Part shown: piece after piece, positions 952 through 56,811 of the stretch
Position numbering within the stretch: position 1 is the stretch's first letter
Layout of the letters: every line of letters starts with the position of its first letter
Origin: a virus
Taxonomy: Duplodnaviria; Caudoviricetes
IMG/VR virus record: IMGVR_UViG_3300037781_000042
Coordinates: 128,001 to 192,000 of that record
Length of the DNA: 64,000 nucleotides
Strand: one strand, 5' to 3'
Made by a program: the position numbers and the translations under genes
Notes under the pieces: model-generated
Told to the model about the DNA's origin: nothing
Databases searched by the model: none
Seen by the model: only the letters and a program-made list of their open reading frames with translations

Positions 952-1311
952 ATGTATTTAGATTTCAAAAAGTTTTGTTTACAAGAAGATAGTTCAGCTG
1001 TTGCTTTTATGGGACCGGAAACAGACGGTTCTATTGTGTATCAAAGTTGGCACACCCCTTCCTTTCAAGTTGCGATTTTAAGTAGAGAAAGAGCAGCACA
1101 AATCTATGAGCCTAAATCAAATTTAAAACCAAGTCCTACTATAATTAAAAAAGGAGATGAAGTTGAAGTTTTTGATATGAACAAAAAGAAAAACATTCAT
1201 GGTAAGTTTATAACAGGAATAAAAGATCCTGAAGGAAATTATAAAACGGTTACTTTAAATGTAGATGGTAAGATAATTAAATTAGAAACTTCAGAAATAG
1301 AAAAAGCTTAA
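952..1311 (+). CDS. hypothetical protein with capsid-targeting-like leader
   Basis: N-terminus MYLDFKKFCLQE; lies downstream of the late motif. Confidence 0.6.
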   Translation: MYLDFKKFCLQEDSSAVAFMGPETDGSIVYQSWHTPSFQVAILSRERAAQIYEPKSNLKPSPTIIKKGDEVEVFDMNKKKNIHGKFITGIKDPEGNYKTVTLNVDGKIIKLETSEIEKA

Positions 1312-1320
1312 GAATAACAA

Positions 1321-1797
1321 ATGACATTAAATTTAAATTGTGCTCCTACGGGAACTACAGATGGAAATAAGATAATTATAAGAGACGATCATTTTACTGT
1401 AATTAAAAATGGTAAAACAGTTACTACTGTTTCTTTAAAAGATTGTGTATGGGTTGCAGACAATGTTGTAAGTTATACAATTGATCTTCCTAAAAATTCA
1501 GCAGTTACTTTAGATTCTTCTACTATTTCTTCTGAAACAGATGAAGGAATGATTATGTTTGCTGTAATGGCTAAAAATTCAGTCTTTGCCGAAAAGGATT
1601 ATGAAAATGATAAATTATTTTATACAAGAGATAGTGATGATCCAACTCCGTTAGGACAGTTAAATGTAATTTCTGGAAGTACTGTAAATAGAATTACGGG
1701 AGTTTTTAAATTTTTTAACGGAACTCCTAATGCTGTTATTGATGATATAAATGATGGTCAATATGATGCTACTCTAGATATTTTAATAGCACTTTAA
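1321..1797 (+). CDS. putative virion structural protein
   Basis: Beta-rich acidic protein co-oriented between late genes; no recognised family. Confidence 0.45.
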   Translation: MTLNLNCAPTGTTDGNKIIIRDDHFTVIKNGKTVTTVSLKDCVWVADNVVSYTIDLPKNSAVTLDSSTISSETDEGMIMFAVMAKNSVFAEKDYENDKLFYTRDSDDPTPLGQLNVISGSTVNRITGVFKFFNGTPNAVIDDINDGQYDATLDILIAL

Positions 1798-1819
1798 AAA
1801 TAGAAAAATAAAAATATAA

Positions 1820-4744: not shown

Positions 4745-4972
4745 ATGCATAAAGAAAAAAGAATAATAGAAAGTTTTATAGAATTTAATAAAATAAATGA
4801 AAATGTCGACAGTGATATAGAAAAGTTAAAGAAATTTAATACTCGCGAAAAGCGATATGAATTTATAAAAGATTTTTCTAAAGATAGATTAATAAATATA
4901 GCAGATAAACTTGATATAGATTATGAAGATCATGATGATTTAGAATCTAGAGTATTAAATTGCTTCGATTAG
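4745..4972 (+). CDS. small internal-protein-like ORF with capsid-targeting-like leader
   Basis: MHKEKRIIESFIEFNKINE leader. Confidence 0.65.
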   Translation: MHKEKRIIESFIEFNKINENVDSDIEKLKKFNTREKRYEFIKDFSKDRLINIADKLDIDYEDHDDLESRVLNCFD

Positions 4973-5439: not shown

Positions 5440-5910
5440 ATGGAAAGAAAAAATTTAATGAATTTCGAAAACTTTAGAAATCATTTAAACGAAAATGAAG
5501 AAGGTACATTAGAAATAAATAATGTAGAAGAAGAAACTGAAGAAGAGTCTAAAGAAGATAAAAAGAAAGACAAAAAGAAAAAAGACAAGAAAGAAGATAA
5601 AAAATCTGATGGAGAAATAGCATCTGATGTTATGGAAGATGTAATGGAAGACATAGAAAAGAAATTTTCTTCTGATGCTACTTTAACATTTACTTCAAAA
5701 GAAATTACTTTAACTGTACCTGGAGAAGAAGAATCTTATTCATCTACTCAAAAATTAGATGATGATAAAGATATGGAGAAAGTAGTTAAAGAAATGATTA
5801 AAGATATTGAATCTCAAATGGAAGAAGAACCTTCTAAAGAACCAGAAGAAGGAGAAGATCCATCTACAGGAGATGATATTGATTTATCTAAGTTTTTAGA
5901 TGAAGAATAA
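5440..5910 (+). CDS. highly charged internal-protein-like ORF with leader
   Basis: MERKNLMNFENFRNHLNE leader; E/D/K-rich low-complexity body. Confidence 0.65.
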   Translation: MERKNLMNFENFRNHLNENEEGTLEINNVEEETEEESKEDKKKDKKKKDKKEDKKSDGEIASDVMEDVMEDIEKKFSSDATLTFTSKEITLTVPGEEESYSSTQKLDDDKDMEKVVKEMIKDIESQMEEEPSKEPEEGEDPSTGDDIDLSKFLDEE

Positions 5911-5929: not shown

Positions 5930-6226
5930 ATGAAAAAAGAAAATAGAATAGTAGAAAATTTTGAAAAATTTTCTAAAATAAATGAAGATAGAACCGATGA
6001 AATAACCCCAGGAAAAAAATATACTACATCAGATTATGTTTACGCAGTATCTTTAGATAATGTAGCAGATCAAAATTATGAAGTAACTATCGATAATGGG
6101 GAAGAATTTACAGTACTTCCTAAAGAAGAATGGTATTCTGAAAGGACTATTGCGGTAGATTATTATGGAAATAAAGTATTTGTAGATGGTAATTTTATTA
6201 AATATGAATGCTGGGAAAACAATTAG
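5930..6226 (+). CDS. small internal-protein-like ORF with leader (start moved from 5900 to 5930)
   Basis: MKKENRIVENFEKFSKINE begins at ATG 5930, preceded by TATAAATA at 5914-5921. Confidence 0.65.
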   Translation: MKKENRIVENFEKFSKINEDRTDEITPGKKYTTSDYVYAVSLDNVADQNYEVTIDNGEEFTVLPKEEWYSERTIAVDYYGNKVFVDGNFIKYECWENN

Positions 6227-6249: not shown

Positions 6250-6759
6250 ATGAAAAAAGAACAAAAACAAAGAATAGTAGAAACCTTTAAAGGATTTAAT
6301 GAAGCATTTGATCCTTTTCGCCGCACAAAAATGTATACAAATGCAGACAAAAAACGAGAAAGAGAAGAATTTAGTAAATATGATATTAATTCTATAAAAG
6401 AAAAATTGGAAAAAAATATAAGTTTTCTAAATTCACAAATTTCTAAAGTATTGGAAGCAGATGTTAGATTTATAGTTGAATACGACCCAGAAAAATTTGA
6501 ATTTTTACTTACTTCTAACAATCTTTTAACTTCTATGGATACTATAGGATATAATGTAAAAATGGTACTATTTGGTCATCTAAGTGCATTAGAATCAGGA
6601 TTTTTATTTTTTGAAACAAAAATAAATTATAACTTAGGAGAAGGAATAGAAACTAATTATTTAGAAGCTTTTCCAGGATTAGAAAGATTTATTGCATTTG
6701 GAGTTAATACTGAAACATGGAAATTCGAAAATGTTGATATTGAAGCAATAGATAAATAA
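6250..6759 (+). CDS. internal-protein-like ORF with leader (start moved from 6208 to 6250)
   Basis: MKKEQKQRIVETFKGFNE begins at ATG 6250. Confidence 0.65.
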   Translation: MKKEQKQRIVETFKGFNEAFDPFRRTKMYTNADKKREREEFSKYDINSIKEKLEKNISFLNSQISKVLEADVRFIVEYDPEKFEFLLTSNNLLTSMDTIGYNVKMVLFGHLSALESGFLFFETKINYNLGEGIETNYLEAFPGLERFIAFGVNTETWKFENVDIEAIDK

Positions 6760-6881: not shown

Positions 6882-9800
6882 ATGGCAAATAACAGATACT
6901 TAGATTTATCACAGTATAAAGCCCCAGGGATATATTTTGAAGAATATGAAGGAGCTCCGGTAACGCAGGTAGATACTACTATTCTTAGATTAGTTCCAGG
7001 CTTTTCTAGAAAAGGAATTTATAATAAGCCAATCTTAGTTAATTCTAAAAACGAAGCAATTCAAATATTTGGAGATATTGATCCATTTTTAGAAAAAAGA
7101 GGTTCGTTTTTCCACAGATCATTATTTACTGCATTAGAAGCTGGACCTGTTTTAGCTTTAGCATTAATGCCAGTAAACAATGGAACAGATTTAGATTTTC
7201 CAAGAGATGAAGTAGAATATCAATCATTTTCATTAGATACAAAAGAGAAAAATTCTAAAGTATCTAGTGCATTATATTCTGCATTTTTTAATAAAGAAAG
7301 ATTTTGGGAACTAGATTTAGAAAACTTTGATGGTATTATAGAATTTAATGCAACAACTTCAGGAAAATTATTATCAGTAGCAAATTTAGGAACTAAGCAA
7401 GTTTCTTTAATTACTAGAAAAACTAATGTTAAAGGTTTTGATATAACTGCAAGAAAATTCTTTGGACAAAATAATGTTCCAGATTATTTACAAGATTTTG
7501 ATATATTGAATGATTATTTCTTAGAAGTAATTATAATTGAAGGAGATTGGAATGATTATGAGAAATTATCAATTGATCCAATTTATTCAAAATACTTTAC
7601 TAAGGACGGTTTAATTAAATCAAAATTAAATGACTTCTTAGCTGAAGATGGAGTAGATTATGTTCAAAATTATACAGGATCTGTGATTCCTGATTTAATT
7701 GACGGTAACGGTAAAAACTGGTCATTAGATGCAATAATGAATCAAGGAATAACAATAACAGGATTGTTTACTTCTATTAATAGAGAAGTTCTAGAAAATT
7801 GGGAAAATAAAGCTGATTCAGTTTCTGATCTTGATTTAGTAGGTCACTCATTAATTAATCAAACAGCTTCTGGTTCTGCAGTAAAAGAATTAGATTTCTT
7901 ATCATATAAAGCAAACTTCAATACTTCTAAAACTTATCCTTCTTCTGAAAACGGAGAAGATTTATCTACAAAAGTAGGTAATATAACTTTAGATGGTGTT
8001 ACTTTACAATCTAAAGCAATTGAAGGTTATGGATTATTGAATAATAGGTTAAGAATAATAAAGCCTACAGATGCTACCCAGTTAGCTACTTATAATACTT
8101 TAAAGCAAGCAGCTACTGAAAAAACAGCTGTATTTGCAGGACATAATGATACAACAGATACTGCTTCTGAAATTTATTTTGGTGTTGTAGATGCTTACGA
8201 AATAAATGAAGTAAATTCTTTAGGAGACAATGAAATAGTTCTTTATGTAGATTTAAAGAATTCTGGAAAATCTGCTGAAGCTGATACGGTTTATACGTTT
8301 GATGAAACTGATTTGGATGCAAATTCAATCAATTTAACTTCATATACAGTATATGGTGCTGAAGTTGGTAGACAAATTTATTTCAAACCTAAAACTTCTG
8401 CTTCTACAGGATATTATGCAACTATTTCATCATTAACATTAGATGATCCAGGAGATGAATGTGCTATCGTAGTAACAGGATTACCTGATACAATGACTAA
8501 TTTAGGAATTGGAAACTCTACTCACGATGTTGTAGTAAGTAATTTAAATCCTTGTCAAGCTATAAATAGTGGTTTAACTTGGACTGTTAGATATTCAGCT
8601 GCTCCTAATTTAACTATTTTAGATGAAGCAGGAACTGATTATTTAGAAGTTTATTCAGGATCAGATCTTTACAAAGATATTGAATCTGGTTTAATTAAGA
8701 ATGGACAAGTTACTGGAGATACTGAATATTTGAAAATTGAAAAAGCGCAAGATTCTGTAGGAATTGATATTTATAATGTTAAGTTCTTTACAAATGAAAG
8801 TTTATCAATCAATTCAGCAACAGATGCTCCGGCTGAAGATGCTACATTCACAACTCCATTTACGACTACGGATATAGTACAAACGGTTCCTATCGTAACA
8901 AATTCATTATCAGCAGATACAAAATCTGTTAAAATAACGAATGCTAATTTAGGAGATACTAAAGTAGGGGATTATATTGCAACTTCAATAACTGAAGGTT
9001 TAACTACTAAATATTATGCGGCTAAGATTATTTCAATGGTAAGTAATGGAGATGGTACTAAAACTGTAACGTCTGCAGCTTCAATTACTACATTTGATGT
9101 ATCTTCTGTTGATAACGTTTACATTTTATCTGCAGTTGAAGACTTTGCAACTAATTATACTTTTGCTACTTTAAGTGGATTTACAGTAAACGATTATCAC
9201 CTACCAGGTAATTTCTTAAATAGACAATCTCAATTAGAGAAAATTATTAAAGTAATGGGACCAGGAACAAATATCTACAAAGCTCTTGCTGATAATGAAA
9301 CAATGAGATTTAGATATATTGTTGATACATTCAGTGGAGGTGTTTCTGCAGAATGTTATCCTAAAAACTTAATTACTAGATTAGCTAAAGATAAATTAAG
9401 ATGTTTAGCTATAATGAATACTCCTTCTTGGAAAGAATTGAAAGAGTCTACTGATCCTAGGTTCTCTGATTTACCGTCAGAAGTTGATCCTAGACCACCA
9501 ATTAAAGTTCAATATATTAAAGAAGGTGGTAACTTAAGTTTAGGACCAAGTGTTAGATTCTCGCTTCCTTCAGAAGAAAATGGTTCAAGACATTGTGGTT
9601 TCTTCGGAACATATCCATTAGTTAGATATAATAAGAAAAATATTGCAGTTCCGCCTGCAGCTGGAATTTCAAATAGATTTGTTTCTAAGCATTTTGATGG
9701 AACTAAGTTTAATGCAGTTGCTGGTAAATATGGAGGATTCTCTGTAACTGGAGCAACAGGAGCATTAGAGCATGATTTTACTTTTGAAGATAGAGAGTTT

Positions 9801-10238
9801 TTAGCTGAGTTAGGTTGGAATCCGATTGTTTGGAGAGAAAATCAAGGTTATGTAATATTTGATAACTTGATGGCATACCAAGAACAATTATCTGCATTTA
9901 ACTACTTATCAACTAGAGATTTATTAATTACTATTGAAGATGGTATAGATTCAATCTTACAATCTTACTTATGGGATAATAATACAGATTTCTTAAGAGA
10001 AGAAGTTTCTGCTAGATTAAGAGCATTCTTAAATCAAGTTAAAGTTGCTGGAGGTTTAACTGACTATAAAGTAACAATGACAAGTGCTAATAACACAAAT
10101 GAAACAATAACTGCAGGATTTGGTATAATTGATATTGATGTAGAACCTACATTCCCAATATCTAAATACTTGAATAGAATTACTGTTCATAATGCTGGAG
10201 GCGTTGGAGAATTGCAACAATCTGGTTTTAGCGGTTAA
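6882..10238 (+). CDS. gp18: contractile tail sheath protein, copy 1
   Basis: N-terminal YKAPGIYFEEY motif; C-terminal sheath domain (VPPAAG, GWNPIVW, GYVIFDNL, RDLLITIE, IDIDVEPTFP). Confidence 0.92.
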   Translation: MANNRYLDLSQYKAPGIYFEEYEGAPVTQVDTTILRLVPGFSRKGIYNKPILVNSKNEAIQIFGDIDPFLEKRGSFFHRSLFTALEAGPVLALALMPVNNGTDLDFPRDEVEYQSFSLDTKEKNSKVSSALYSAFFNKERFWELDLENFDGIIEFNATTSGKLLSVANLGTKQVSLITRKTNVKGFDITARKFFGQNNVPDYLQDFDILNDYFLEVIIIEGDWNDYEKLSIDPIYSKYFTKDGLIKSKLNDFLAEDGVDYVQNYTGSVIPDLIDGNGKNWSLDAIMNQGITITGLFTSINREVLENWENKADSVSDLDLVGHSLINQTASGSAVKELDFLSYKANFNTSKTYPSSENGEDLSTKVGNITLDGVTLQSKAIEGYGLLNNRLRIIKPTDATQLATYNTLKQAATEKTAVFAGHNDTTDTASEIYFGVVDAYEINEVNSLGDNEIVLYVDLKNSGKSAEADTVYTFDETDLDANSINLTSYTVYGAEVGRQIYFKPKTSASTGYYATISSLTLDDPGDECAIVVTGLPDTMTNLGIGNSTHDVVVSNLNPCQAINSGLTWTVRYSAAPNLTILDEAGTDYLEVYSGSDLYKDIESGLIKNGQVTGDTEYLKIEKAQDSVGIDIYNVKFFTNESLSINSATDAPAEDATFTTPFTTTDIVQTVPIVTNSLSADTKSVKITNANLGDTKVGDYIATSITEGLTTKYYAAKIISMVSNGDGTKTVTSAASITTFDVSSVDNVYILSAVEDFATNYTFATLSGFTVNDYHLPGNFLNRQSQLEKIIKVMGPGTNIYKALADNETMRFRYIVDTFSGGVSAECYPKNLITRLAKDKLRCLAIMNTPSWKELKESTDPRFSDLPSEVDPRPPIKVQYIKEGGNLSLGPSVRFSLPSEENGSRHCGFFGTYPLVRYNKKNIAVPPAAGISNRFVSKHFDGTKFNAVAGKYGGFSVTGATGALEHDFTFEDREFLAELGWNPIVWRENQGYVIFDNLMAYQEQLSAFNYLSTRDLLITIEDGIDSILQSYLWDNNTDFLREEVSARLRAFLNQVKVAGGLTDYKVTMTSANNTNETITAGFGIIDIDVEPTFPISKYLNRITVHNAGGVGELQQSGFSG

Positions 10239-10316: not shown

Positions 10317-10547
10317 ATGAAAAAAGAACAAAGAATAGTAGAAAGTTTTGAAGATTTTCAAAATCCTGAAGCAGCTCCAGTAGAAAATAAAATTTCTCCA
10401 GAAGCAAAAGAAAGAATGGAAAGTTTCGCAGATGCTGAAAATTTAACAGCTCTTGTTGATAGTGTAAGATTATTTGCTTCTGAAATGATGAACGACGGTT
10501 TTGAAAAAGAAGATGTAATGGAATACATTGAATCTATAATTGATTAA
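10317..10547 (+). CDS. small acidic internal-protein-like ORF with leader
   Basis: MKKEQRIVESFEDF leader. Confidence 0.65.
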   Translation: MKKEQRIVESFEDFQNPEAAPVENKISPEAKERMESFADAENLTALVDSVRLFASEMMNDGFEKEDVMEYIESIID

Positions 10548-10560
10548 ATACTAAAAAACT

Positions 10561-11037
10561 ATGAAAAAAGAACAAAAAATAGTCGAAAGTTTTCAAGATT
10601 ATTTCAAAAATAAAGAAGAAAACGTAAGTAAAATTCAAGAAGAAAAAAATTACGATCTTGATTCAAAAACAGGTCAATTAGAATTTTTAAATAACGAAAT
10701 GGATGCTCTTGAAAAAGAACTTGAATTTGAAAAAGATCCTGCGAAAAGAAAAGAGATTGAACAAGAAATGGAAGAAGTTGGTCAATCTATTAGAGATTTA
10801 GAAAATGAAGAAGACGAAAGTGTAGTAGAAAGTTTTGCTCCTCAAATAGATAAAAGACTTGAAAAAAGACAAAAGAAATCTTTAGAATTAAAAGAATATA
10901 AAGAACAGGCAATGACAATTATCCAAGGCAGAGATTATGATCTTTATGATTTCGAAGATAAAATGTATGATGCTTTTATGAGAGGAGATGATCCTAAACA
11001 ATTTGCTAGAGATTATGTATTAGATAACGAGTTATAA
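10561..11037 (+). CDS. acidic coiled-coil internal-protein-like ORF with leader
   Basis: MKKEQKIVESFQDYF leader; a second VVESF motif internally. Confidence 0.65.
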   Translation: MKKEQKIVESFQDYFKNKEENVSKIQEEKNYDLDSKTGQLEFLNNEMDALEKELEFEKDPAKRKEIEQEMEEVGQSIRDLENEEDESVVESFAPQIDKRLEKRQKKSLELKEYKEQAMTIIQGRDYDLYDFEDKMYDAFMRGDDPKQFARDYVLDNEL

Positions 11038-11038: not shown

Positions 11039-11479
11039 ATGAAATTAGATTTTTTTACTAATATGGAAAATACTGTAGAAAAGTTTTTAGAGCCACAATA
11101 TAATAATTTATTCGATATAGATTTATTTACAAATAATTCTAAGATAAATGATGAAATTTTTATAGAGCTTTTAAATGAGTCTGTAGTATCCGTAGATTTA
11201 GAACTTAAGAAATATAGATTTCATACAGAAATTTGTTTAAATGAAGGAACTAAATATATTTTAGAATTGTTTCATAACTTAAAACATAGATTTCCAAATC
11301 CTAAAGTAACACTATCTTTATTTAATAGAATTCATGAACCTTCTATTTCTATTGATTTTACAGAAGTTCAATTAGATGATATTGAATTTTTAAAATTTGA
11401 TTATAATGATAATTCTTTAACTAGGTTAAATTTAGTTTGGGGATTTAGAAAATACAAATTACGTTTACATAATGACTAA
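11039..11479 (+). CDS. tail tube-like protein (gp19 fold)
   Basis: EPQYNNLFDI near the N-terminus; C-terminal VTLSLFN...IDFTEVQLDDIEFLKFDYNDNSLTRLNLVWGFRKY pattern; lies between two sheath genes. Confidence 0.55.
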   Translation: MKLDFFTNMENTVEKFLEPQYNNLFDIDLFTNNSKINDEIFIELLNESVVSVDLELKKYRFHTEICLNEGTKYILELFHNLKHRFPNPKVTLSLFNRIHEPSISIDFTEVQLDDIEFLKFDYNDNSLTRLNLVWGFRKYKLRLHND

Positions 11480-11696
11480 ATTATATGAAAGCTTTGATGA
11501 ATATTCTTCTTATGCTGGAGAAGTAGAAGTAAATACTGATTTAGAAGATGGTATTTACAAAGGAACTATTTCAGGATGGATAGTTACTGTAGAAGGACAA
11601 GATTATAGAAGTACAACAGGCGGAGTTAGATGCAGTGGGTGTCCTATTGAAGCCTTTGTTAAAAATAATGTTTTAAGATTTAAACAATTAAGGTAA
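11472..11696 (+). CDS. small protein with leader-like N-terminus
   Basis: MTKLYESFDEY; body resembles the next ORF (DGxYxGxxxG). Confidence 0.55.
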   Translation: MTKLYESFDEYSSYAGEVEVNTDLEDGIYKGTISGWIVTVEGQDYRSTTGGVRCSGCPIEAFVKNNVLRFKQLR

Positions 11697-11706
11697 AGAA
11701 AAGCTT

Positions 11707-11946
11707 ATGGAAAAGAAAGATAGATTATATGAATCGTATAACAGTTTTTGTACACCTCCTAATATAAATACGTTCACTACAGAACAAAAAGATGGAACAT
11801 ATTCAGGATATGTTTATGGAGATAAATTGTATCTCCAAGGATGGGATAAAATAGAAGAATATTCTTTAATGACAAATAGAAGAATTAAAGGAAAGAAAAA
11901 AATAATAGTTGAAGTAAAAGACGGTTCATTTACTTACAATGTATAA
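11707..11946 (+). CDS. small protein with leader-like N-terminus, probable paralogue of 11472
   Basis: MEKKDRLYESYNSF; DGTYSGYVYG versus DGIYKGTISG in 11472. Confidence 0.55.
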   Translation: MEKKDRLYESYNSFCTPPNINTFTTEQKDGTYSGYVYGDKLYLQGWDKIEEYSLMTNRRIKGKKKIIVEVKDGSFTYNV

Positions 11947-11953
11947 AAATAAG

Positions 11954-12418
11954 ATGGAACAGAAACCAGTAAAATTATTTGAAGCTTGGAGAAAATTTAA
12001 TGAAGATAACAATCAAATGTCTCCAGAAGAAATGTTATCTCAGATTATAATAGATAAAGGATATGATGAAGCTATTGAGGTAATAGAAGAAAATCCTAAA
12101 CAATACTTAAGTGATTCTGCTGTAAGATTTGTTTCTGATTATCATGTATCAGAATGGGAAATCACTAAAGAATATCAAGAAAAATATTCTATTCCAGTTG
12201 AAAGATATTCTGAAATTTTACAAAGACTAGATGATTTAGTTGAAAATGAAATGAATAAACCTAAAGAAGGAGAATGGTTTAATGAAAAGGTTAAAGATGT
12301 TTTAGGAACTGATGTAATTAAATTAGAAGAACATTATTTAGATAAAGTAGTTTTTGATGATTACAATCATTTAAAATACATCTTAGAAAGAAGAAAGAAA
12401 CAAAGCATTCATTTATAA
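11954..12418 (+). CDS. acidic protein with leader-like N-terminus
   Basis: MEQKPVKLFEAWRKFNE from ATG 11954 (longest ORF starts at 11939). Confidence 0.55.
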   Translation: MEQKPVKLFEAWRKFNEDNNQMSPEEMLSQIIIDKGYDEAIEVIEENPKQYLSDSAVRFVSDYHVSEWEITKEYQEKYSIPVERYSEILQRLDDLVENEMNKPKEGEWFNEKVKDVLGTDVIKLEEHYLDKVVFDDYNHLKYILERRKKQSIHL

Positions 12419-23732: not shown

Positions 23733-24172
23733 TTTTCTTTATTTTTGTTTTTTACATTTGCTAACTTCTTTTTAGTTAGTATCAATTTCATCATCATTGC
23801 AAGCAATAATGAATTTTCTTCTCTATTTAATACATAAGCAAAATTTTCTTTTAAAGACCACTTACTGATAAATTCTCTCATATTTAAAGAAGATACATCA
23901 ATTGCAATTGCATCTATTTCTCTAGTAACTTCTTCTGCTCCAAAAGAACCATCGTTATTAAAGCTTCCTAAAAAACTTATTCTTTTAGAATCTACTTCTA
24001 GTTCTAATTCGTCTAAAATTTCTGCTAAAACGTCGTGAGTTTCATCTTGAGGCTCTACTATAAAAGGTCTATTATTTAAAACATTTTCAGAATAATAAAC
24101 TCCTAACTGCCCTTCCTTTGTCATAGTATACAAAAGAAATCCCATTTTAGTATATTCAATATTATTTGGCAT
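23729..24172 (-). CDS. hypothetical protein, possibly a degenerate Nudix fold
   Basis: ETHDVLAEILDELELEV loosely recalls a Nudix box but lacks the GX5EX7REUXEE consensus. Confidence 0.3.
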   Translation of the reverse strand: MPNNIEYTKMGFLLYTMTKEGQLGVYYSENVLNNRPFIVEPQDETHDVLAEILDELELEVDSKRISFLGSFNNDGSFGAEEVTREIDAIAIDVSSLNMREFISKWSLKENFAYVLNREENSLLLAMMMKLILTKKKLANVKNKNKEN

Positions 24173-48446: not shown

Positions 48447-49985
48447 TTACAAAGATTCCAGAAGTTCAGTTCTTTCTTCTACCATATTTTCTAATTGGTC
48501 CATATCAAAACCCAAAATATTAAAATGTACTTGTGCTTTTAATTCATCTAGTTTTCTTTTTAGATATACTATTTCTCCAATGCTACCCGTCTCATTAATA
48601 GTGAAATTTATTTCAACAACACAACTAGACGGGAGAGTTGATAAAAATTCAAGTATTGTCATCGTTGGAATGTCTTTAATTTGAATATGTTTTAACGTTT
48701 GAATATTGATATTATCTAATAAATTTTTATCATTGTCTATTCTTAAACAGCTATGAATAATTAAATTTTCTAAATCAATTTCAATTTTTGGGTTAATTTT
48801 AATTTTATTATGTCCAAAACCGATACGGAAAGTATTAATTTTAGAAGGAAATTGTTTAAAATTTAATGTGTAATTAGCTGAGTTTCTTTCTAAAAATAAT
48901 TCACCAGTAATAATATCAGGCATATAATCTATGTAGTCTATTTTATCTAAACTTTCAATCTTCAAGTTTTTTAATTTTTTAGGAATTCCTTTAAAAGAAA
49001 AAGGATTTTCATTTACTCTTTCATATCCAACCCCTCCTCTAATAATCAATCTATTATTAGAAGGAAGTCCTTCTAAAGTTTCTAAATTATTTGAATGGAT
49101 TTCAATTTCATTAATAAATTCTACAGAAGAAAGTATATTTAAATCTTTCAACGTTTTACTAAAAAAATGACATTCGCCATGAATATTTTTAATTTTTAAA
49201 TTTTTAAAAAAATCATCTCTTTGATTTCTAATATAAAAGTTATGTAAATCATAAGTGCTGTCTATATTTTTAGTTATTTTTATTTCATCTACATCAATAA
49301 GAATGTCGACCCCACTAAATGACGATATTTCTTCGAACTCTTTATTAAGAATTGGAAAATTTTGATATTCTTGTGGTAATAATTTGCTTAATTTGTTTTT
49401 TGTATATTCAGAATATATCTGATCATTAGGCGCATCCCAAATAGTTATTCCGTTACTATTAGAATGAACTGCCATTTTATATCTTTTAGCATTCGGTGAT
49501 AATTTTTTATTTTGAAAATAGTATAAAGTTCCATTAGGATATACATGATAGTAGAAATAATTTTTACTTTCAGTTGCTGCAGTACACCATTTAGCTCCAT
49601 AGCCGTATTTTATCGAAGATGTTTTATTTAACGGAACTACTATTTTCCATTCTTCATCATCTCTAAGAATCAATTCGTGTGATTTTACGTCTTCACTATT
49701 TCGTATAAATCTATTTGTAATTGCTTCAACATCAGTACACATTTTATGGATAGAAAATTCTTGGTATGGATTATACATGTTATACTTATTTCTTTTATCT
49801 AAATTATACATAGATTTAGTAATAAATTTTATATAAAAATGAGAATATTGGTGTAAATAAAGTTCACAAATAAATATCATATATTTATATGCTTTAAAAG
49901 GAACCGCTTCTTTTAACTTATTAAATTCTTCTTTATTAATCTTTCCGGTTTCTACATATTTTTTTCTAGCTAATTTTAAACTCAT
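48447..49985 (-). CDS. WCTA-domain LRR-like protein (family B), leaderless
   Basis: MSLKLARKKY start; SSIKYGYGAKWCTAA; degenerate LRR C-terminus; AGGAG upstream. Confidence 0.8.
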   Translation of the reverse strand: MSLKLARKKYVETGKINKEEFNKLKEAVPFKAYKYMIFICELYLHQYSHFYIKFITKSMYNLDKRNKYNMYNPYQEFSIHKMCTDVEAITNRFIRNSEDVKSHELILRDDEEWKIVVPLNKTSSIKYGYGAKWCTAATESKNYFYYHVYPNGTLYYFQNKKLSPNAKRYKMAVHSNSNGITIWDAPNDQIYSEYTKNKLSKLLPQEYQNFPILNKEFEEISSFSGVDILIDVDEIKITKNIDSTYDLHNFYIRNQRDDFFKNLKIKNIHGECHFFSKTLKDLNILSSVEFINEIEIHSNNLETLEGLPSNNRLIIRGGVGYERVNENPFSFKGIPKKLKNLKIESLDKIDYIDYMPDIITGELFLERNSANYTLNFKQFPSKINTFRIGFGHNKIKINPKIEIDLENLIIHSCLRIDNDKNLLDNINIQTLKHIQIKDIPTMTILEFLSTLPSSCVVEINFTINETGSIGEIVYLKRKLDELKAQVHFNILGFDMDQLENMVEERTELLESL

Positions 49986-49998
49986 TTCATTCTCCTAT

Positions 49999-51672
49999 TT
50001 AAAATGGTATATTTTCATCTACTTCAATTATTTCTATTTCATAATCTTCATTTTGTACTGCATAGACAGGTTTTTTACCCCATATAGTAGTATACCCTCC
50101 TGATAAAGATAAATCTTCTTCTATCGATTCTTCTATTTCTTCATTTATTTTTTCCGTTTCTTTTTGACGAGGATTAGATAAACGAACACTTCTAATAAAT
50201 GCTCCGTTCATTTTAAAATTGGCTGAAGATTCTATTTCTAAATCTTCAAAACCATTCTTAGATAAATCAGAAATTTCTTTTATTGGATTTCTTTTTAAAT
50301 CTATATTAACACAATATGAAGGCAAATTTTCAACTTTAGTTATTTTATTATTTGCTAAAATAAGATTATCCATTTTATCATTTAGATTTTCTATTTTAGT
50401 TATATTATTATCTTCTAAATTTAAGTAACATATTTTATTTCCTCTAGGTAAATCTATTTGTTTCAAGTTATTGTAATTTACTGTCAAAGCTTTGATATTT
50501 AACGGGATATTTTTTAATGATTTAATTTCGGTATGTTTTAGAAATATTTTTGAAGTAATTTCTAAATCAGTATAATCTATATGTGAAATATTTCCGTGTA
50601 TAATACAAAACTCTCTTACTCTTCCTTTAGGCAACTTCACAGAAAAATTGTGAGTGTTAGAGGGCATATAGTTCACAAATCTTAATTCTGTTTTTAAATA
50701 AACGAACTCTGGTAAATTATCATAAAATTCTTTATCATGAACAATTAAATTTGAGCGACTTCCAAAAAGATATTTTATTTTTATAGGAAAAGAAGACATA
50801 TAAATAGAACTTATAATATCTGACATTTCTTCTGCTCTTTCAAAAATGTCAATTGTTTTGTCATCATTAAATACATATACTAATTGAGTATAATAACTTT
50901 GTAGTTTTTCAATAAAAGAAATTTTAGGACTTAGAGTAAAGTATTTATCTTTTATAAACTCTTCATTTTTATAATCAATTAATCTCAAAGCTTCTACATG
51001 ATTCGCATTAAATTCTTTTAATGTTTCCTTTGCTTTTTCTTCGTTTTCAAAACGAAAAGAATATAGTAGAGAATCGTCTGCGTCCCAAAGTTCAACTAAA
51101 TTTTCTTCATAATCTACTAAATATGCAGTTTTATATTGAGAATCATTATGCATAGGTTTATCTGGAAAATCGTCTAAATCTTTAAAGTGGACATAATACA
51201 AAACACTAGAAGAATTTCTATATTCACGAAATCTGTTACTGTTCTTTGCAGACGTACACCACTTGGTTCCTGCGCCATGTTTAATAGATGCATATTTTGT
51301 ATGAGGAACTACAATTTTTAATTTTTCATTGTCTACTATTACAGTTTCAGAAGTATGCGAATCTAAAGTTTTTAAAATTTTATCATTATATTTCATTCCT
51401 ACTTCAGTTAAGATACGGTTAAATTCATTAAAATTTAACTGATTAATATCTTCTTTAATGTATTTCTTTTTTCTAAATCTATTCCAATGATAAATGTATC
51501 TTGCAAGTTTAGGAATGTCGTGTTCTGTAAAATCGTTTTGTAAATAAAATTTACACATAGCTTCAAGATACTTGTAGCTTTTAGAAGGATCCGCTTCTTT
51601 AAGTTTATTAAAAAGTTTTTTGTTTATTTTTTTCTTAAGTAAATATTTTTCTTTAGCAGTTTTTAAACTCAT
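49999..51672 (-). CDS. WCTA-domain LRR protein (family B), leaderless
   Basis: MSLKTAKEKY; DPSKSYKYLE; ASIKHGAGTKWCTSA; LxLxxNxIxKIENL repeats; ends DENIPF. Confidence 0.8.
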   Translation of the reverse strand: MSLKTAKEKYLLKKKINKKLFNKLKEADPSKSYKYLEAMCKFYLQNDFTEHDIPKLARYIYHWNRFRKKKYIKEDINQLNFNEFNRILTEVGMKYNDKILKTLDSHTSETVIVDNEKLKIVVPHTKYASIKHGAGTKWCTSAKNSNRFREYRNSSSVLYYVHFKDLDDFPDKPMHNDSQYKTAYLVDYEENLVELWDADDSLLYSFRFENEEKAKETLKEFNANHVEALRLIDYKNEEFIKDKYFTLSPKISFIEKLQSYYTQLVYVFNDDKTIDIFERAEEMSDIISSIYMSSFPIKIKYLFGSRSNLIVHDKEFYDNLPEFVYLKTELRFVNYMPSNTHNFSVKLPKGRVREFCIIHGNISHIDYTDLEITSKIFLKHTEIKSLKNIPLNIKALTVNYNNLKQIDLPRGNKICYLNLEDNNITKIENLNDKMDNLILANNKITKVENLPSYCVNIDLKRNPIKEISDLSKNGFEDLEIESSANFKMNGAFIRSVRLSNPRQKETEKINEEIEESIEEDLSLSGGYTTIWGKKPVYAVQNEDYEIEIIEVDENIPF

Positions 51673-51685
51673 TTTATTCTCCTAT

Positions 51686-53344
51686 TTAAAATGGTACCCC
51701 GGCTCTGTCGCAAGTACTTTCACTAAGTGTAATACCCGAATTTACTATAATTTTTTTACTATTTGGTAAAATTAACGTTTCTTCTGCAGTTCTAGGGTTG
51801 GACAATGAAAGTTCAGAAACATCTATATCGTTTATAACTATTTTGTTGTAAGAAAGATTTAACGATTCAAAATTACTATTCGAAAGATTTTCGGGTAAAG
51901 ACTTAATATTATTTTCCATTAACAATATTCTTCTTGTCCATTGAGGAAGATTTTCTATTTTTTCAATTTCATTATCTACTAAATTTAGTAAATTCATTTT
52001 TTTAGGTAACCCTTTAATCTTTTTTATTTTACATTTACTTAAATTAATTTCTTTCATTTTTTCTGGAAATACTACTTCTATTTCATTTATTTCATTAGAA
52101 CTTCCGTTAAATATTTCCAAATGCTGAGTATTTAAATTTAAAAGTGTTTTAATTTTAGTATTTGAAACGTCTAATTTCCAATATGAAATATTTGAAATAT
52201 GTTTTAAATCGTCAATATCAGAATCATGTAAATCCAGATCATATATTAATCCGTTAGAAAAAGATTTCCAATTATCTATTTTTAAATTACCTCCGTATAA
52301 ATATACAGAAGTTATATTTTCAATATTTAAATTTTCAAAATAAATTTCCCTTATAAATAAACTTCTACAAAAACAATTTTTAATTTTAATAGGGTAGTCT
52401 GTTGGAATATAATTATTATATCCAAATACATCTAATGTTCCATCATCATTAAATACTCTATAACTTCCTACTTCGTCAATTATTTCTTTGTCGTATTTGC
52501 TATTTTGTTCTTTATATTTTTCATCAAAATATTTTTCTGAAAAATCTATATAAGATACTGCAAGTTTAATTATATCATGAAAATCTGCTCTATGTGGAGG
52601 ATCTAAAGATTTCCATATTGCTATTTTTTTATAAATTTCTTCTAGATTTTCTTCAGTGTTTTTTGTATTTTCCCAATGTATTACATAAACATTTGAATCT
52701 TCAACATCCCAAAATTTAATATATTGTTCTTCTCTACTAACTTCTGCTGCTAATTTATACAAATTACTATTTGAAGATGGATCGTCTGGATGCCTATCTA
52801 AATATTTAAAATAGAAATAATATAAAACACAATTAGAATTTTGATATTGATTAAATCTGTTATCTTCTGTTCCTGCTGTACACCATTGAGTTCCGTACCC
52901 GTATTTTATAGAAGCAGTATCTGTGTGAGGAATAACTACTTGTATATCATCATTGTTTTCTAGAATAGTTTTTTTATATTTTCGAGTGTCATTTTTTTCT
53001 ATAAATTTAATATTATATTTTTCAAATACTCGAACTAAAATAGTTCTAATTGTATCAGCAGAAAGTTGATTTATATCTTCTTTAATGTAACCCTTTTTTC
53101 TAAACCTATCCCAATGATAAATTAATCTTTCTACCCATTTTATTTTATATAGAGTTAAAAACTTTTCCGGGTAGTGGTCATCTTCATTTATGTAAAAATA
53201 ATAATTTTCATACATATCACACATAGCTTCAAGATACTTATAGCTTTTAGAAGGATCTAGTTCTTTTAGTTTATTGAAAACTTCTTTAGAAACTTTTTTT
53301 GTTTTTAAATATTTTTCTCTAGCAGATTTTAAACTCATTGCCAA
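51686..53344 (-). CDS. WCTA-domain LRR protein (family B), leaderless
   Basis: MSLKSAREKY (second Met); ASIKYGYGTQWCTAG; LRRs; ends AGVPF. Confidence 0.8.
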   Translation of the reverse strand: MAMSLKSAREKYLKTKKVSKEVFNKLKELDPSKSYKYLEAMCDMYENYYFYINEDDHYPEKFLTLYKIKWVERLIYHWDRFRKKGYIKEDINQLSADTIRTILVRVFEKYNIKFIEKNDTRKYKKTILENNDDIQVVIPHTDTASIKYGYGTQWCTAGTEDNRFNQYQNSNCVLYYFYFKYLDRHPDDPSSNSNLYKLAAEVSREEQYIKFWDVEDSNVYVIHWENTKNTEENLEEIYKKIAIWKSLDPPHRADFHDIIKLAVSYIDFSEKYFDEKYKEQNSKYDKEIIDEVGSYRVFNDDGTLDVFGYNNYIPTDYPIKIKNCFCRSLFIREIYFENLNIENITSVYLYGGNLKIDNWKSFSNGLIYDLDLHDSDIDDLKHISNISYWKLDVSNTKIKTLLNLNTQHLEIFNGSSNEINEIEVVFPEKMKEINLSKCKIKKIKGLPKKMNLLNLVDNEIEKIENLPQWTRRILLMENNIKSLPENLSNSNFESLNLSYNKIVINDIDVSELSLSNPRTAEETLILPNSKKIIVNSGITLSESTCDRAGVPF

Positions 53345-54882
53345 GATCCTCTTTTATTATTTAACACTAAATCTTCAATAAAAATATCATTAATTTTAAT
53401 TTTATTTCTGTGTAAATATAATCTATTAAACTGATGAGACATTAAATTTTCAGGAATTTCTTTAATTTCATTGTCATCTAAAAATATAGTATCAAATTTT
53501 AGTGGCAAATACTTTAAATCCTGAATATTATTATTTCGTAAATAAACTTCTCCTACATTATCAGGTAAATTTTTCAAAGATTTTAAATTATTATTTTCTA
53601 ATACAATCTCATCCATTTTATTTGGTAATTTACAATCTATTTTTTCTAAAGGTACTCCATTTGCGTGTATACTTAAAACATTTTTACTAATAAGCTTTAA
53701 AGATTTTATTTGACTCCAATTCAAATTTATTTTAAAGTAAGAAATATCTTTTAAATGATATAAATTTTTAATTTTGCTATTAGTTAAATCAATATAATAA
53801 GTACTTCCTTTTGGAAAACTAGACCATTTATTTAAATCTAAATTGTTAGCTTCTATTTTATAACATTCAACGTTTTCAATATAGTTAGATAAATCATTTA
53901 TCTTCAAATTATTTAAATATAAACCATCTCCTATAAAATTCTTTATTTTTATACAATTTTCTCCTTTCTCTTCAATATATGAATTTAAATCACAATCTCC
54001 ATAAAATTTATCTAATGTTCCATCATCATTGAAAATATATCCTCCATTATTAGGTAAAAGCGTTGCCAAATTATTTTGTTGAATATATTTTTTACTTAAA
54101 AAACGTCTATTGAAAGTTAAATATTTAATTATAGGAACATAAACTTTTTGGAATTCTAGAGAATAATGACGTTCAATAAATTCTTGTAAATCCTTTCTAA
54201 CCTCTTTTGCAGGTTCTTCTAAATCTATACTGTAACAAGTTAAAATTTTATTGTCATTAACATCCCAAAATCTAATTTCATCCTCTTCAATATCTATATC
54301 TATAGCAGTTTTATAATAATTTGAATTTAATTCAGGATTATTAGGATGAGTATCTAAATCTTTAAAGTGAACGTAATAGAAAAAATGACCTGCGTTTTGA
54401 TATTCATTGAATCTATTGGATCTTTTTGCAGCAGTACACCATCTAGTTCCTGATCCGTATTTTATAGAACCCATATCTGTATGCGGAACTACAATTTTGA
54501 ATTTATCGTTATCTACAATAACAGTTTCATGATATTTTCTAGTGTCCTTTTTTTCCATAAATTTAATATTAAATTCATATCCGGTCTCTAAAACTATCTC
54601 TACACATTCATTAAAATTTAATTGATTAATATCTTCTTTAATATAACCTTTTTTTCTAAATCTTTCCCAATGGTAGATAATTTTACTTATAAATTTAATC
54701 CTATGATTCTGTTTAAATGCTTGTGGATAACCGAGATCTGGAGATTTAGTTAAATAGTAGTCACACATTGCTTCGATATATTTAAACGTTTTAGAAGGAT
54801 CATTCTTTTTTAATTCGTTGAAAACTTCTTCAGAAACTTCCCCTGTATCTAAATACTTTTTTCTTGCTGATTTTAAACTCAT
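53335..54882 (-). CDS. WCTA-domain LRR protein (family B), leaderless
   Basis: MSLKSARKKY; GSIKYGSGTRWCTAA; LRRs; AAGGAG upstream. Confidence 0.8.
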   Translation of the reverse strand: MSLKSARKKYLDTGEVSEEVFNELKKNDPSKTFKYIEAMCDYYLTKSPDLGYPQAFKQNHRIKFISKIIYHWERFRKKGYIKEDINQLNFNECVEIVLETGYEFNIKFMEKKDTRKYHETVIVDNDKFKIVVPHTDMGSIKYGSGTRWCTAAKRSNRFNEYQNAGHFFYYVHFKDLDTHPNNPELNSNYYKTAIDIDIEEDEIRFWDVNDNKILTCYSIDLEEPAKEVRKDLQEFIERHYSLEFQKVYVPIIKYLTFNRRFLSKKYIQQNNLATLLPNNGGYIFNDDGTLDKFYGDCDLNSYIEEKGENCIKIKNFIGDGLYLNNLKINDLSNYIENVECYKIEANNLDLNKWSSFPKGSTYYIDLTNSKIKNLYHLKDISYFKINLNWSQIKSLKLISKNVLSIHANGVPLEKIDCKLPNKMDEIVLENNNLKSLKNLPDNVGEVYLRNNNIQDLKYLPLKFDTIFLDDNEIKEIPENLMSHQFNRLYLHRNKIKINDIFIEDLVLNNKRGSWQ

Positions 54883-54951: not shown

Positions 54952-54952
54952 T

Positions 54953-54991
54953 AAATAAAAAAATCTCTACTAAAATTAATTAGTAGAGATT
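54953..54991 (-). terminator. rho-independent terminator
   Basis: 12-bp stem aatctctactaa / ttagtagagatt followed by a U run on the minus strand. Confidence 0.8.
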
Positions 54992-55020
54992 CAATATGAA
55001 AACAACAAAAATAGTTTTAT

Positions 55021-56811
55021 TTAGCCACGGAATTGATCTAGGCCTTCAAGTTCTTTAAATTTATTTATAACTATATCTGCATTTTTTTGATGTATTTCTG
55101 GTGAGATGTCTCCATAATCCTGTGATCCTTTAACACCTCCTTTAGAATTGTTATTTGTTTGATCTACTTTTTCTCCCGATTCGTATTCATCATCTATACT
55201 AAATTTTTTAAGTACATCATGTTTCTTAGATCCTTCTTCTATTCCATATATAAGTTGCATTAAAGCTAAGTAAGTAATCGAGCCTTCCCATATAGAAGCC
55301 ATTAGAGCATAAGAAGCCCAAAATGTAGCAAATGCTAAAGTAACATTTGTAACAGGAACTTTTTTATCTGAAGCAGCGTTTGCCTTTAAAAATTTAGTAA
55401 CAAACGGTCCTACTTGTTTAAGTAAATCTTCAAATGACCCTTTAGTTGTATACTTACCATCTTCATTTAAAACACCATATTCTAATTGTCTTAAAAATCC
55501 AATATCAGTTAAAAGAGAATCATTTCCTAAAATGATTTTACAATATTTTTGAAATTCTTGAATTCCAAAATTCGAAGCATCTAAATTATCAACTCTATTA
55601 TTCCAATAAGAACGTATTACCTGATGTAACCATTTTCTATTGGTAATATTGTGAGTACTATTTGCTTGATTTAAATATTCTTCTGAAAGCATCCAAGAAG
55701 CCCATCCAATAGTATTCATCCCAGGAATAAAATTATCAAAGAAAGTATCATACCATCCTTCTGATTCTTCTGCTACCGACATCTTATAAGGATTTTTTTC
55801 ATCATCGTCATTTTCTAACATATACTTAGAAACATAAGCTTTCATAGAAGTATAATCTTCTATATCTTTTCTTCCTGAAACATTAAATCCTGCATATTGA
55901 TCAAATACTTCATCTATCCAATCTTCTTTAGAATCTCCTGCTAAAATTTCATTCATCAAAGAAGATTCAGTTATAGACTCTCCTAATTTCTCTATTCCTT
56001 TCATGTACTCTTCTACATACTTAAGAGATTTTTGATCGTCTGCAATTCTTATGGTAAACTTTCCTTCTCCTTTAAAACTATCATTTAATTTTCCTAAAAA
56101 AGAAAGTCCTGCTGTTTTAGAAGCAAATAAACCTCCAGCAACAGATTTATAAATATTTTTTATCTTTGTTTTACTAGTACTCTTTTTATGTTTTCCATTT
56201 TCCCAGATTTCTTTAATCTCGTACATGTCTGGATTTCCTCTAAGATAGAAGAATCCCCATACAACCGCGGCTGCCGCTAATACAGTTACCCCTGCAGCAG
56301 TTGTAAAGAAACTAAGAATGGCTTTTCCTCCCATCAATAAAGATCTTCCTATACCTGTCCAAAATCCTGCTCCCCATAAACCAGTAGTAGTTCCAGCAGA
56401 AGTTGCAGCAACAGCAGATTTTACACCTAATGCAGAAAGAGCCTTTGTAAAAATACTTACTTTAGCTGCTCCTGCGGCTGCTGCAGTAGTTCCAACAGCA
56501 AAAGAAGATTTAGCAACAGCAGCGGCTCCTGCTTTCGATATAGCTGAACCAACTAACCATCCCCCTAATTTCTTAAAAGCAAATTTTGCTACCAAACCCA
56601 TTCCTACATAAGTAGTTAATGTCTCAGCAACACTAGTAACCATACTTACATTTGCTGTAGCAGTTTCATCACCACCTATTTCATTTTCTACGTTTAAAGA
56701 TTCTACATCTTCGTCCTCATAGATGAACCCAGAGGTGTTTGTTTCTTTAAGATGATTATTACTATGTCTTTTCGATTCTAAGTCCTTAGAATACTCCGTA
56801 TAATTTTTCAT
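55021..56811 (-). CDS. putative internal/ejection protein with long Ala/Gly-rich hydrophobic region
   Basis: MKNYTEY start; about 130 aa of A/G/V-rich apolar helices; late motif upstream; own terminator. Confidence 0.5.
   Translation of the reverse strand: MKNYTEYSKDLESKRHSNNHLKETNTSGFIYEDEDVESLNVENEIGGDETATANVSMVTSVAETLTTYVGMGLVAKFAFKKLGGWLVGSAISKAGAAAVAKSSFAVGTTAAAAGAAKVSIFTKALSALGVKSAVAATSAGTTTGLWGAGFWTGIGRSLLMGGKAILSFFTTAAGVTVLAAAAVVWGFFYLRGNPDMYEIKEIWENGKHKKSTSKTKIKNIYKSVAGGLFASKTAGLSFLGKLNDSFKGEGKFTIRIADDQKSLKYVEEYMKGIEKLGESITESSLMNEILAGDSKEDWIDEVFDQYAGFNVSGRKDIEDYTSMKAYVSKYMLENDDDEKNPYKMSVAEESEGWYDTFFDNFIPGMNTIGWASWMLSEEYLNQANSTHNITNRKWLHQVIRSYWNNRVDNLDASNFGIQEFQKYCKIILGNDSLLTDIGFLRQLEYGVLNEDGKYTTKGSFEDLLKQVGPFVTKFLKANAASDKKVPVTNVTLAFATFWASYALMASIWEGSITYLALMQLIYGIEEGSKKHDVLKKFSIDDEYESGEKVDQTNNNSKGGVKGSQDYGDISPEIHQKNADIVINKFKELEGLDQFRG

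Follow-up and report, generated by a model that had tools for sequence, protein, structure and literature searches.

Two classes of short N-terminal leader, one resembling the T4 capsid-targeting sequence, on genes of an uncultured phage with a T4-type head module

The IMG/VR viral record IMGVR_UViG_3300037781_000042 is a contig of 211,581 bp (27% GC, 82% complete by the CheckV estimate) on which two kinds of short N-terminal leader recur in front of otherwise different proteins. We analysed the 64,000 nucleotides from base 128,001 to base 192,000 of this contig (the window) together with the remainder of the record; coordinates prefixed "genome" follow whole-contig numbering and all others that of the window. 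The type A leader reads MNKEFKTYKEF[LIV]NE or similar, the type B leader MKKE(Q/N)RIVESF or similar. Alongside the genes that carry these tags, the window holds two 1,100-aa sheath paralogues, a gp5-like hub, glycosyltransferases and recombination genes. The head module of the contig is of the T4 type, with genes for an S77 protease and a Gp23-family capsid protein. DNA nearly identical to the window stretch occurs in many sequencing runs, which are pond metagenomes, with no RNA run among those listed. The host is probably a member of the Bacteroidota, as judged only from lipoprotein-like signal peptides and from the nearest capsid relatives.

To locate the leaders, we scanned hidden Markov models (HMMs) of both types against the 274 open reading frame (ORF) calls and against a six-frame translation of the whole 211.6-kb contig (263,592 residues). 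With this search we found nine type A and nine type B genes. All 18 leaders begin at a start codon (ATG, in one case TTG), and there is no internal match in the ORFs or in the six frames. The score falls from 15.6 for the last accepted type A match to 11.1 for the next, and from 22.8 to 13.9 for type B. Six leaders of each type lie inside the window, exactly where a preliminary description of this DNA had placed them: type A at 16956, 42179 and 34367 on the plus strand and at 25434, 22827 and 20175 on the minus strand, type B at 4745, 5930, 6250, 10317, 10561 and 37196, all on the plus strand. The other type A genes are found at genome 17139, 17787 and 205420-206262, the other type B genes at genome 201830, 203776 and 208639. 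The same description had spoken of about 20 genes, a figure that holds for the whole contig; the window contains 12 tight and two to three credible loose leaders. The genes for the sheath (6882 and 12512), the baseplate (16078) and replication lack the leader, as it had also stated.

A looser pattern, [FYW]xx[FYW]x(0-5)[LIVMF]xE within the first 26 residues, occurs at the N-termini of 29 of the 274 ORFs, compared with 9.4 ± 3.0 in shuffled proteins (approximately 3-fold enrichment). Internal windows match this pattern at a rate of 4.0%, and around the sheath genes of 16 distant relatives it is found in 4 of 223 ORFs. The N-terminal excess amounts to about 20 genes genome-wide, although single loose cases are uncertain. 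The concentration at N-termini, for which an HMM scan and a comparison with shuffled proteins had been proposed, is therefore borne out by both searches. Five copies of the leader are nearly identical at the DNA level. Since the DNA upstream of the leader ATGs is unrelated between copies, synonymous positions vary among the copies, and TCT as well as AGT/AGC codons serve for the Ser that follows NE, we conclude that selection acts on the leader peptide.

The comparison with T4 on which the preliminary description was built is accurate. The T4 capsid-targeting sequence (CTS) is MKTYQEFIAE (PMC8442874), and suppressor analysis attributed targeting to its residues 4 and 7 and processing to residues 8 and 10 (PMC9026906). 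These four positions correspond to Y, F, L/I and E of the type A sequence ..KTYKEFLNE, and in the type A core Y, F, L/I/V and E are invariant in T4 spacing. Type B leaders retain I-V-E and, in most cases, a further [LI]-N-E; the spacing seen in T4 is not preserved in them.

Searches against Pfam and PHROGs returned no family for most of the tagged bodies. BLAST of the bodies without their first 25 residues defined one leucine-rich repeat (LRR) family with 15 members, to which five of the window's six tight type A genes belong as paralogues. The claim that the bodies behind the leaders are unrelated thus fails for these five; it stands for the four unrelated folds that carry type A leaders genome-wide and for the nine type B bodies. 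The short form of the LRR family comprises 16956, 22827, 42179 and genome 205420, the long form 20175, 34367, 24162, genome 37323 and four tandem genes at 48447-54882, and the two forms are joined by BLAST at 3e-14. The protein encoded at 22827-23732 reaches 28.5 bits with LRR_4 (cut-off 27), the remaining LRR proteins score just under the cut-off, and the ESM Atlas structure rows with higher template modelling (TM) scores (0.41-0.47 by query) are LRR proteins throughout. A tblastn search of cultured phages with the short LRR protein gave no match, and a word-based search for homologues of the long LRR protein brought up generic LRR proteins for the most part.

Among the short forms, a 279-aa protein (16956-17795, plus strand) carries the tight type A leader MNKEFKTYKEFLNE (16956-16997) and is encoded directly behind the gp5-like baseplate hub gene. 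Its 264-aa paralogue (42179-42973, plus strand) has the leader MNKEFKTYKEFLNE at 42179-42220, and a 301-aa paralogue that starts with TTG (22827-23732, minus strand) has the leader M-ITKQIKNYTEFINE at 23688-23732. The long LRR proteins have an N-domain and a region that we call 'WCT'. In the 540-aa protein (34367-35989, plus strand), the leader MNKIVKGYTEFLNE is followed by these two parts and then by the LRR. Weak PcfJ-like features of the 'WCT' region in the ESM Atlas (below 0.9 or TM <0.5) provide only a lead. A 494-aa long paralogue (20175-21659, minus strand) has a type A leader with a two-residue insertion, MNKEFLNYRDFLSLNE (21612-21659), and a 410-aa long paralogue (24162-25394, minus strand) has the truncated leader MQHLNE. 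The orthologue of this last gene on a syntenic relative (L021) begins with MNTKRSNILNE, which likewise ends in hydrophobic-N-E.

Other members of the family carry no leader. Four tandem long paralogues (48447-54882, minus strand) start with M-SLK..., and when they are aligned with the tagged paralogues (alignment A1), their Met falls on the Glu of the NE site (NE then SKA..). BLAST of the bodies identified three further leaderless members at 58773-62296 on the minus strand. Untagged LRR copies lie near Mre11/Rad50-like recombination genes, in a region that we take to be early or middle. The Mre11-like gene of this region (57082-58152) is followed by a 69-aa ORF that begins like Rad50/gp46 and meets a stop soon after the Walker A motif (window 56871-58152).

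The type A bodies beyond the LRR family are an HExxH protein, a 215-aa protein (genome 17139) and a 301-aa protein (genome 17787), which resemble neither each other nor the LRR proteins. The HExxH protein (222 aa, 25434-26102, minus strand) contains the motif HEMTH, belongs to a large viral family and carries the type A leader MNKEFKTYKEFINE (26061-26102); an orthologue that is 69% identical has the leader MKVKRYNEFINE. Its resemblance to zincins serves as a lead only; zincin and ArdC resemblances in the ESM Atlas lie below 0.9 or at TM <0.5.

The 215-aa protein (genome 17139-17786, type A leader) has 449 homologues. In this family R110, G131, W134, E183 and E185 are invariant; R110 and E183-x-E185, which were compared with the catalytic Arg and the E-x-E motif of R-S-E type ADP-ribosyltransferases, do not vary in 58 sequences. 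Over residues 97-212, an AlphaFold model of the protein (predicted local distance difference test score, pLDDT, of 88) resembles ADP-ribosyltransferase (ART) toxins and almost nothing else, with middling VIA Z scores of 5.0-6.0 to TreX, CARDS, PltA, Scabin, pertussis S1 and LT-A. Foldseek matches are also nearly all ARTs, although weak, with E values of at least 0.2. Pfam gave no match for this protein, tblastn against cultured phages gave none either, and phmmer against PDB sequences, with this protein or the capsid protein as the query, returned nothing useful. Among the 112 homologues of similar length, the N-terminal leader of 23 fits the loose pattern, and in several others a leader ends in hydrophobic-x-E within the first 20 or so residues. 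On the strength of the model and the invariant residues, the 215-aa protein is probably a divergent ART and a functional counterpart of T4 Alt.

The neighbouring gene (genome 17787-18692, type A leader) encodes a 301-aa nucleotidyltransferase of the Pol beta type. It shows the G-S / DxD / D signature, with G56, S57, D67, D69 and D131 invariant in 23 sequences, and Foldseek relates its model (pLDDT 90) to Pol beta and Pol lambda with probability 1.0 and an E value of 2e-5; the Pfam family DNA_pol_B_palm is matched below the cut-off only. Among the 22 homologues whose N-terminus is intact, the majority carry a leader of variable sequence that closes with [LIF]-x-E directly before an invariant GG (alignment A3), and two homologues begin right at the boundary where the conserved GG starts, one of them with M-GG. 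In three homologues (P0227, P0228 and P0230), an insert of approximately 100 residues separates two leader-like sites, ..FVNE and ..FINE (then GG). This insert could be a propeptide that is processed twice, or else a second small cargo freed by cleavage.

Because the leaderless LRR paralogues and these nucleotidyltransferase homologues start at the predicted cut, the tag is a discrete and optional module. It is also portable, since it stands before four unrelated types of type A body and nine unrelated type B bodies. The idea of a portable tag, already put forward in the preliminary description, thus gains a natural boundary: these paralogues and homologues without the leader begin exactly after the site of predicted cleavage.

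All nine type B bodies are small acidic proteins of 75-235 aa (pI 4.2-5.3). They are unrelated to one another, the best pairwise E value being 0.26. The genes within the window, all on the plus strand, encode a 75-aa acidic protein (4745-4972, leader MHKEKRIIESFIEFNKINE), a 98-aa acidic protein (5930-6226, ORF open from 5900, leader MKKENRIVENFEKFSKINE), a 169-aa protein (6250-6759, ORF open from 6208, leader MKKEQKQRIVETFKGFNE), a 76-aa acidic protein of pI 4.2 (10317-10547, leader MKKEQRIVESFEDF) and a 158-aa acidic protein (10561-11037, leader MKKEQKIVESFQDY). The sixth, at 37196-37444, has the leader MNKENKIIESFDEFQNE from Met114 of a 195-aa ORF (36857-37444) with no stop upstream; the gene probably truly starts at Met114, the alternative being a protein with an internal leader. 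A block of small type B-tagged genes lies between the two sheath genes, and the sheath gene of distant relatives has no such block. The two sheath paralogues themselves (6882-10238, 1118 aa, and 12512-16075, 1187 aa) are far longer than T4 gp18.

The preliminary description made its case depend on a protease like T4 gp21, and such a protease is encoded next to the gene for the Gp23-type capsid protein. The 655-aa ORF at genome 58895-60862 (L002:5895-7862) matches Peptidase_S77 (PF03420, the T4 gp21 family) with 53.9-56.3 bits against a cut-off of 27, and phrog_207, 'head maturation protease', at 1.5e-22; by eye it shares DHP and SSR motifs with T4 gp21. The next gene encodes a major capsid protein of the Gp23 family (PF07068, 105 bits). 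The C-terminal half of the protease ORF is an array of approximately 12 tandem 14-residue units, x-I-x-Y-S-E-Y-[LIV]-A-E-N-[LV]-[ND]-K, each with YSEY[LIV]AE, and we regard the protein as a prohead protease-scaffold fusion. A 622-aa orthologue on the fragment G009, from a relative, has the same architecture of protease and repeat array. The protease ORFs of deposited huge phages are also long. The capsid propeptide ends before a Gly-rich N-arm, with LNE-cut-S in G009 and in Chryseobacterium phage MA9V-2 and with MNE-cut-A in the phage studied here. Since this propeptide ends in hydrophobic-Asn-Glu, the same motif is a plausible specificity of the S77 protease.

Among deposited phages, the nearest relatives of the capsid protein and the protease are found, at approximately 36% identity, in the "huge phages" LR756500-LR756504 (462-735 kb) and in the Lak megaphages, with jumbo phages of Chryseobacterium, Tenacibaculum and Sphingomonas more remote. 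A search of IMG/VR for related loci with the capsid protein as the query gave no relative. The leader could be followed further. A DNA pattern for KTYKEFxNE matched 15 IMG/VR contigs, and the motif is N-terminal in at least 12 of them (for example MKTYKEFLNE.. and MAKLKTYKEFVNE..). Among these contigs, S77 is encoded by all four of those tested that are at least 73% complete, and also by one fragment. The matches include Klebsiella phage KPV15, where the gene bearing the motif is annotated 'internal virion/head protein'. On fragment G009, the tagged gene lies directly behind the capsid gene and encodes a 345-aa Lys-rich protein much like a T4 internal protein. LR756500 (462 kb) contains six matches to the pattern YxEF[LIV]NE and LR756501 (735 kb) another four, with no match to a control pattern, and all ten are N-terminal, 2-8 residues from the start codon.

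Orthologues retain the leader while its sequence drifts, as we observed for the genes of the HExxH protein, the LRR protein at 24162 and the GH19 lysin described below. A 32-kb relative (G004) encodes, in addition to an LRR orthologue, the leaders MKTYREFIKE, MNKPVKNYTTFINE and MKSRYLNFKKFINE. In this relative, MNKPVKNYTTFINE is the type A-like leader of a 518-aa AAA-type ATPase (L023:3149-4705), another class of tagged enzyme. Type B patterns gave four internal chance matches in IMG/VR and matches at chance level only in five large phages. In these searches, which serve as a negative control, type B is private to this lineage.

The preliminary description also listed looser candidates, two of which stand. 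One is the truncated leader at 24162, and the other belongs to a 310-aa muralytic enzyme of glycoside hydrolase family 19 (GH19; 28440-29372, minus strand; loose leader MIIKYTDYKLNE). Between this gene and its syntenic counterpart (L021:3603-4922), the N-terminal 20 or so and the C-terminal 35 or so residues are kept, while the catalytic part is GH19 in one and SLT+CHAP in the other; the conserved leader reads MIIKY(S/T)xYK(K)LNE. Two candidates failed. The RLNE site at 35994-36830 (plus strand) is not kept in the L021 orthologue, and MKNYTEYSKDLE at 55021-56811 (minus strand) lacks a hydrophobic P3 residue and so breaks the hydrophobic-x-E rule; the body of this protein contains long Gly/Ala-rich hydrophobic stretches. 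The others, taken one by one, are not separable from chance: 952, 5440 and the small genes 11472, 11707 and 11954 (11472-12418, plus strand), which have loose type B-like starts. The gene at 5440-5910 (plus strand) encodes a highly charged, acidic, low-complexity protein of 156 aa with a loose leader ending in MNFENFRNHLNE and a composition like that of the T4 core protein gp67.

Two other large genes of the window may be mentioned. A 664-aa protein (29753-31747, minus strand) has an internal leader-like stretch, KRFKNFTEYNKMNE then G, near residues 552-565, and both its gene and the adjoining 105-aa gene are missing from the syntenic relative L021. A 631-aa protein (37783-39678, minus strand) consists of GT2 and GT25 glycosyltransferase domains linked by tetratricopeptide repeats.

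We consider it likely that leaders of both types direct proteins to the prohead core, that the S77 protease then cuts them away, and that type A cargo is retained and probably ejected. The T4-type reading is well supported by computation: the type A leader would be the same device as the T4 CTS, a short amphipathic N-terminal peptide with the core aromatic-x-x-aromatic-[LIV]-N-E. The leader would first bind the prohead core, the tagged protein would then be enclosed as the capsid shell forms, and the gp21-type S77 protease would finally remove the leader after Glu. Once matured, the proteins would remain in the head and most likely exit with the DNA. From the genes and motifs described above we infer binding, cleavage and packaging, and ejection by analogy with T4 IPI and Alt only; the role as effectors and the delivery with the DNA that the preliminary description proposed belong to this inferred part. 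The delivered set would consist of LRR proteins, the ART-like protein, the Pol-beta-type nucleotidyltransferase, the HExxH protein and perhaps the cell-wall hydrolase. Type B would be a second leader, specific to this lineage and equipped with two [IL]-x-E sites. It probably directs small acidic proteins to that core as well, where they may be retained and injected or be degraded like scaffold.

The repeats fused to the protease suggest a more specific mechanism. Since the scaffold repeat carries the tag motif, the tags may join the core as single scaffold-like units, and one protease specificity may clear both scaffold and tags. Pursued to its end, this idea would make the capsid-targeting tag a single copy of the scaffold's own repeat, the protease-fused scaffold a polymer of CTS units, and the cargo a partner in co-assembly. 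We offer this version tentatively and hold it to be rather unlikely as it stands. When scaffold residues 280-480 were modelled in complex with the N-terminal 40 residues of the HExxH protein, the score was 0.00 and the partner folded poorly, which is evidence neither way.

Several observations weigh against delivery of the tagged proteins by way of the head. The phage is uncultured and known here from metagenome genes alone. T4 internal proteins are small and basic (DNA-binding), while most of the tagged proteins of this phage are acidic or neutral, and their lengths reach 540 aa. The ART assignment combines middling Z scores (5-6) with a lack of Pfam support. The strict type A pattern is absent from Lak-A2, Tenacibaculum phage pT24 and Chryseobacterium phage MA9V-2, perhaps because their leaders have diverged or, in Lak, because of recoding. 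Type B is without a counterpart outside the lineage, so that its reading depends on within-genome evidence and on an identity of six in nine residues with T4 gp22. Finally, the short LRR genes lie behind large structural-looking genes and the lysin gene lies beside a gene read by eye as gp25-like, and because of these neighbours a tail location is conceivable for both kinds of protein.

These points bear on three other explanations. The leaders may be real prohead-core propeptides while many of the tagged proteins, type B and 5440 above all, are assembly components like gp22, gp67 and gp68 that are chopped up and expelled. For this subset, we regard such a role as possible, if on the whole doubtful. 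It would agree with the small size and acidity of the type B proteins (T4 gp67 is similarly acidic), with the position of their genes inside the structural gene block, and with the type B sequence MKKEQRIVE, which shares six of nine residues with the N-terminus of gp22 (MLKEQLIAE). However, the nine bodies are mutually unrelated and lineage-specific, which is more like accessory cargo than essential scaffold, and the main scaffold is already supplied by the protease fusion.

In a second explanation, the shared N-terminus would plug interchangeable LRR or lysin modules onto the tail or baseplate, outside the head. LRRs are binding modules, and the three large genes that precede short LRR genes are 16078 (gp5-like), 39767 (797 aa) and genome 206265 (747 aa). 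The lysin gene at 28440 adjoins a 120-aa gene (29379-29741), and it is because this neighbour is gp25-like by eye that a tail location of the GH19 enzyme is possible. Tail docking nevertheless gives no reason for the same leader on the ART-like protein, the nucleotidyltransferase and the HExxH protein. It is also at odds with a motif that equals the T4 CTS and the cleavage sites of capsid and scaffold, that co-occurs with S77 proteases, and that heads an annotated internal head protein in KPV15. We therefore judge it improbable. Least of all do we expect a cause unconnected with sorting (gene conversion among paralogues, an mRNA or translation-start element, or a leader for a modifying enzyme of the radical-SAM type, as in ribosomally synthesized and post-translationally modified peptides), since the near-identity of five leader copies in DNA, which would suit it, is offset by their synonymous differences with both types of Ser codon, by unrelated upstream DNA, by orthologues and distant homologues that keep only aromatic-x-x-aromatic...[LIV]-x-E while the rest varies, and by the finding of no radical-SAM domain on the contig.

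Provided that the tags function as they do in T4, genome sequence is enough to list what uncultured jumbo and huge phages carry in their heads. Head cargo comprises the first proteins to reach the host, before any phage gene is expressed. The phage studied here would then bring an Alt-like ADP-ribosyltransferase into the host, together with a nucleotidyltransferase, a putative metalloprotease and several LRR binders. The occurrence of one LRR family in tagged form and, near the recombination genes, in untagged form suggests a single function deployed both pre-made and expressed. To our knowledge, how the T4 CTS recognizes the core is still unsolved, and a scaffold of tag-like repeats offers a testable idea for this recognition. 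Should the tag be a copy of the scaffold repeat, this would provide a physical explanation of how the T4 CTS acts and a rule for reading, from sequence alone, the complete set of injected proteins in jumbo and huge T4-head phages up to 735 kb. It would also reveal a rich pre-made arsenal (ART, nucleotidyltransferase, zincin-like protein, LRR binders tagged and untagged) with a second, private class of tag. Natural CTS variants and their cognate proteases would furthermore give a wider choice of tools for loading foreign proteins into phage heads.

Comparison with known systems begins with T4. In both phages, a short (10-19-residue) N-terminal propeptide with the core Y-x-E-F-[IL]-x-E stands on unrelated proteins, S77 protease and Gp23 capsid genes are present, and the tag, which in T4 is cut after Glu by gp21, is optional and portable. 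Unlike T4, which has three tagged genes, the phage studied here has approximately 18, and its type A leader is extended by MNKEF- with Asn fixed at P2. The T4 record lists the processing sites FGSFLTE-cut-AEIGG in gp23 and MLKEQLIAE-cut and KEWLAE-cut-N in gp22, and the last of these resembles the YSEYLAE-cut-N of the scaffold repeat. The T4 core proteins gp22, gp67 and gp68 are comparable to the type B proteins as acidic proteins with several [LIV]-x-E sites, in addition to the N-terminal identity with gp22 noted above. They differ in that the type B bodies are unrelated to them and that the scaffold here is fused to the protease and built from approximately 12 regular 14-residue repeats.

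The protein encoded at genome 17139-17786 resembles T4 Alt in combining a CTS-type leader with a putative ART-like fold and with invariant R and ExE. It is unlike Alt, which has a size of roughly 680 aa, in its length of 215 aa, in having no detectable sequence similarity and in fold matches that reach a Z score of 5-6 only. Alt itself is a head-packaged, injected ADP-ribosyltransferase with propeptides that are cleaved by gp21 (PMC9026906). In SPN3US, phiKZ and 201phi2-1, ejection and inner-body proteins are processed by a gp21-related prohead protease (PMC5694885, PMC7411985). These giant phages share with the present one a jumbo head with many extra proteins, paralogue families and conserved N-terminal propeptides that are removed at x-x-E. 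Their propeptides, however, are mostly longer than 100 residues and not T4-CTS-like, and a scaffold was not identified there, while the leaders described here have 12-20 residues and match the scaffold repeat.

In the Dar system of phage P1, DarA, DarB and other proteins are packaged in the head by way of N-terminal determinants. The likeness lies in this requirement of head-packaged, injected counter-defence proteins for an N-terminal signal; the capsid lineage and the signal are unrelated, and P1 has no short shared consensus tag. A CTS has also been discussed for P1 (PMC9024508). The T4 literature has suggested that the CTS allows T4-like phages to package varied proteins, and in a literature search the present findings were not described in papers that mention the CTS. 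The principle is thus already known from T4, and our findings extend this known mechanism. What is new is the scale, the two classes of tag, an LRR family with tagged and untagged members, the ART and nucleotidyltransferase cargo, the natural leaderless boundaries, the scaffold of tag-like repeats, and the motif in phages of 462 kb and 735 kb.

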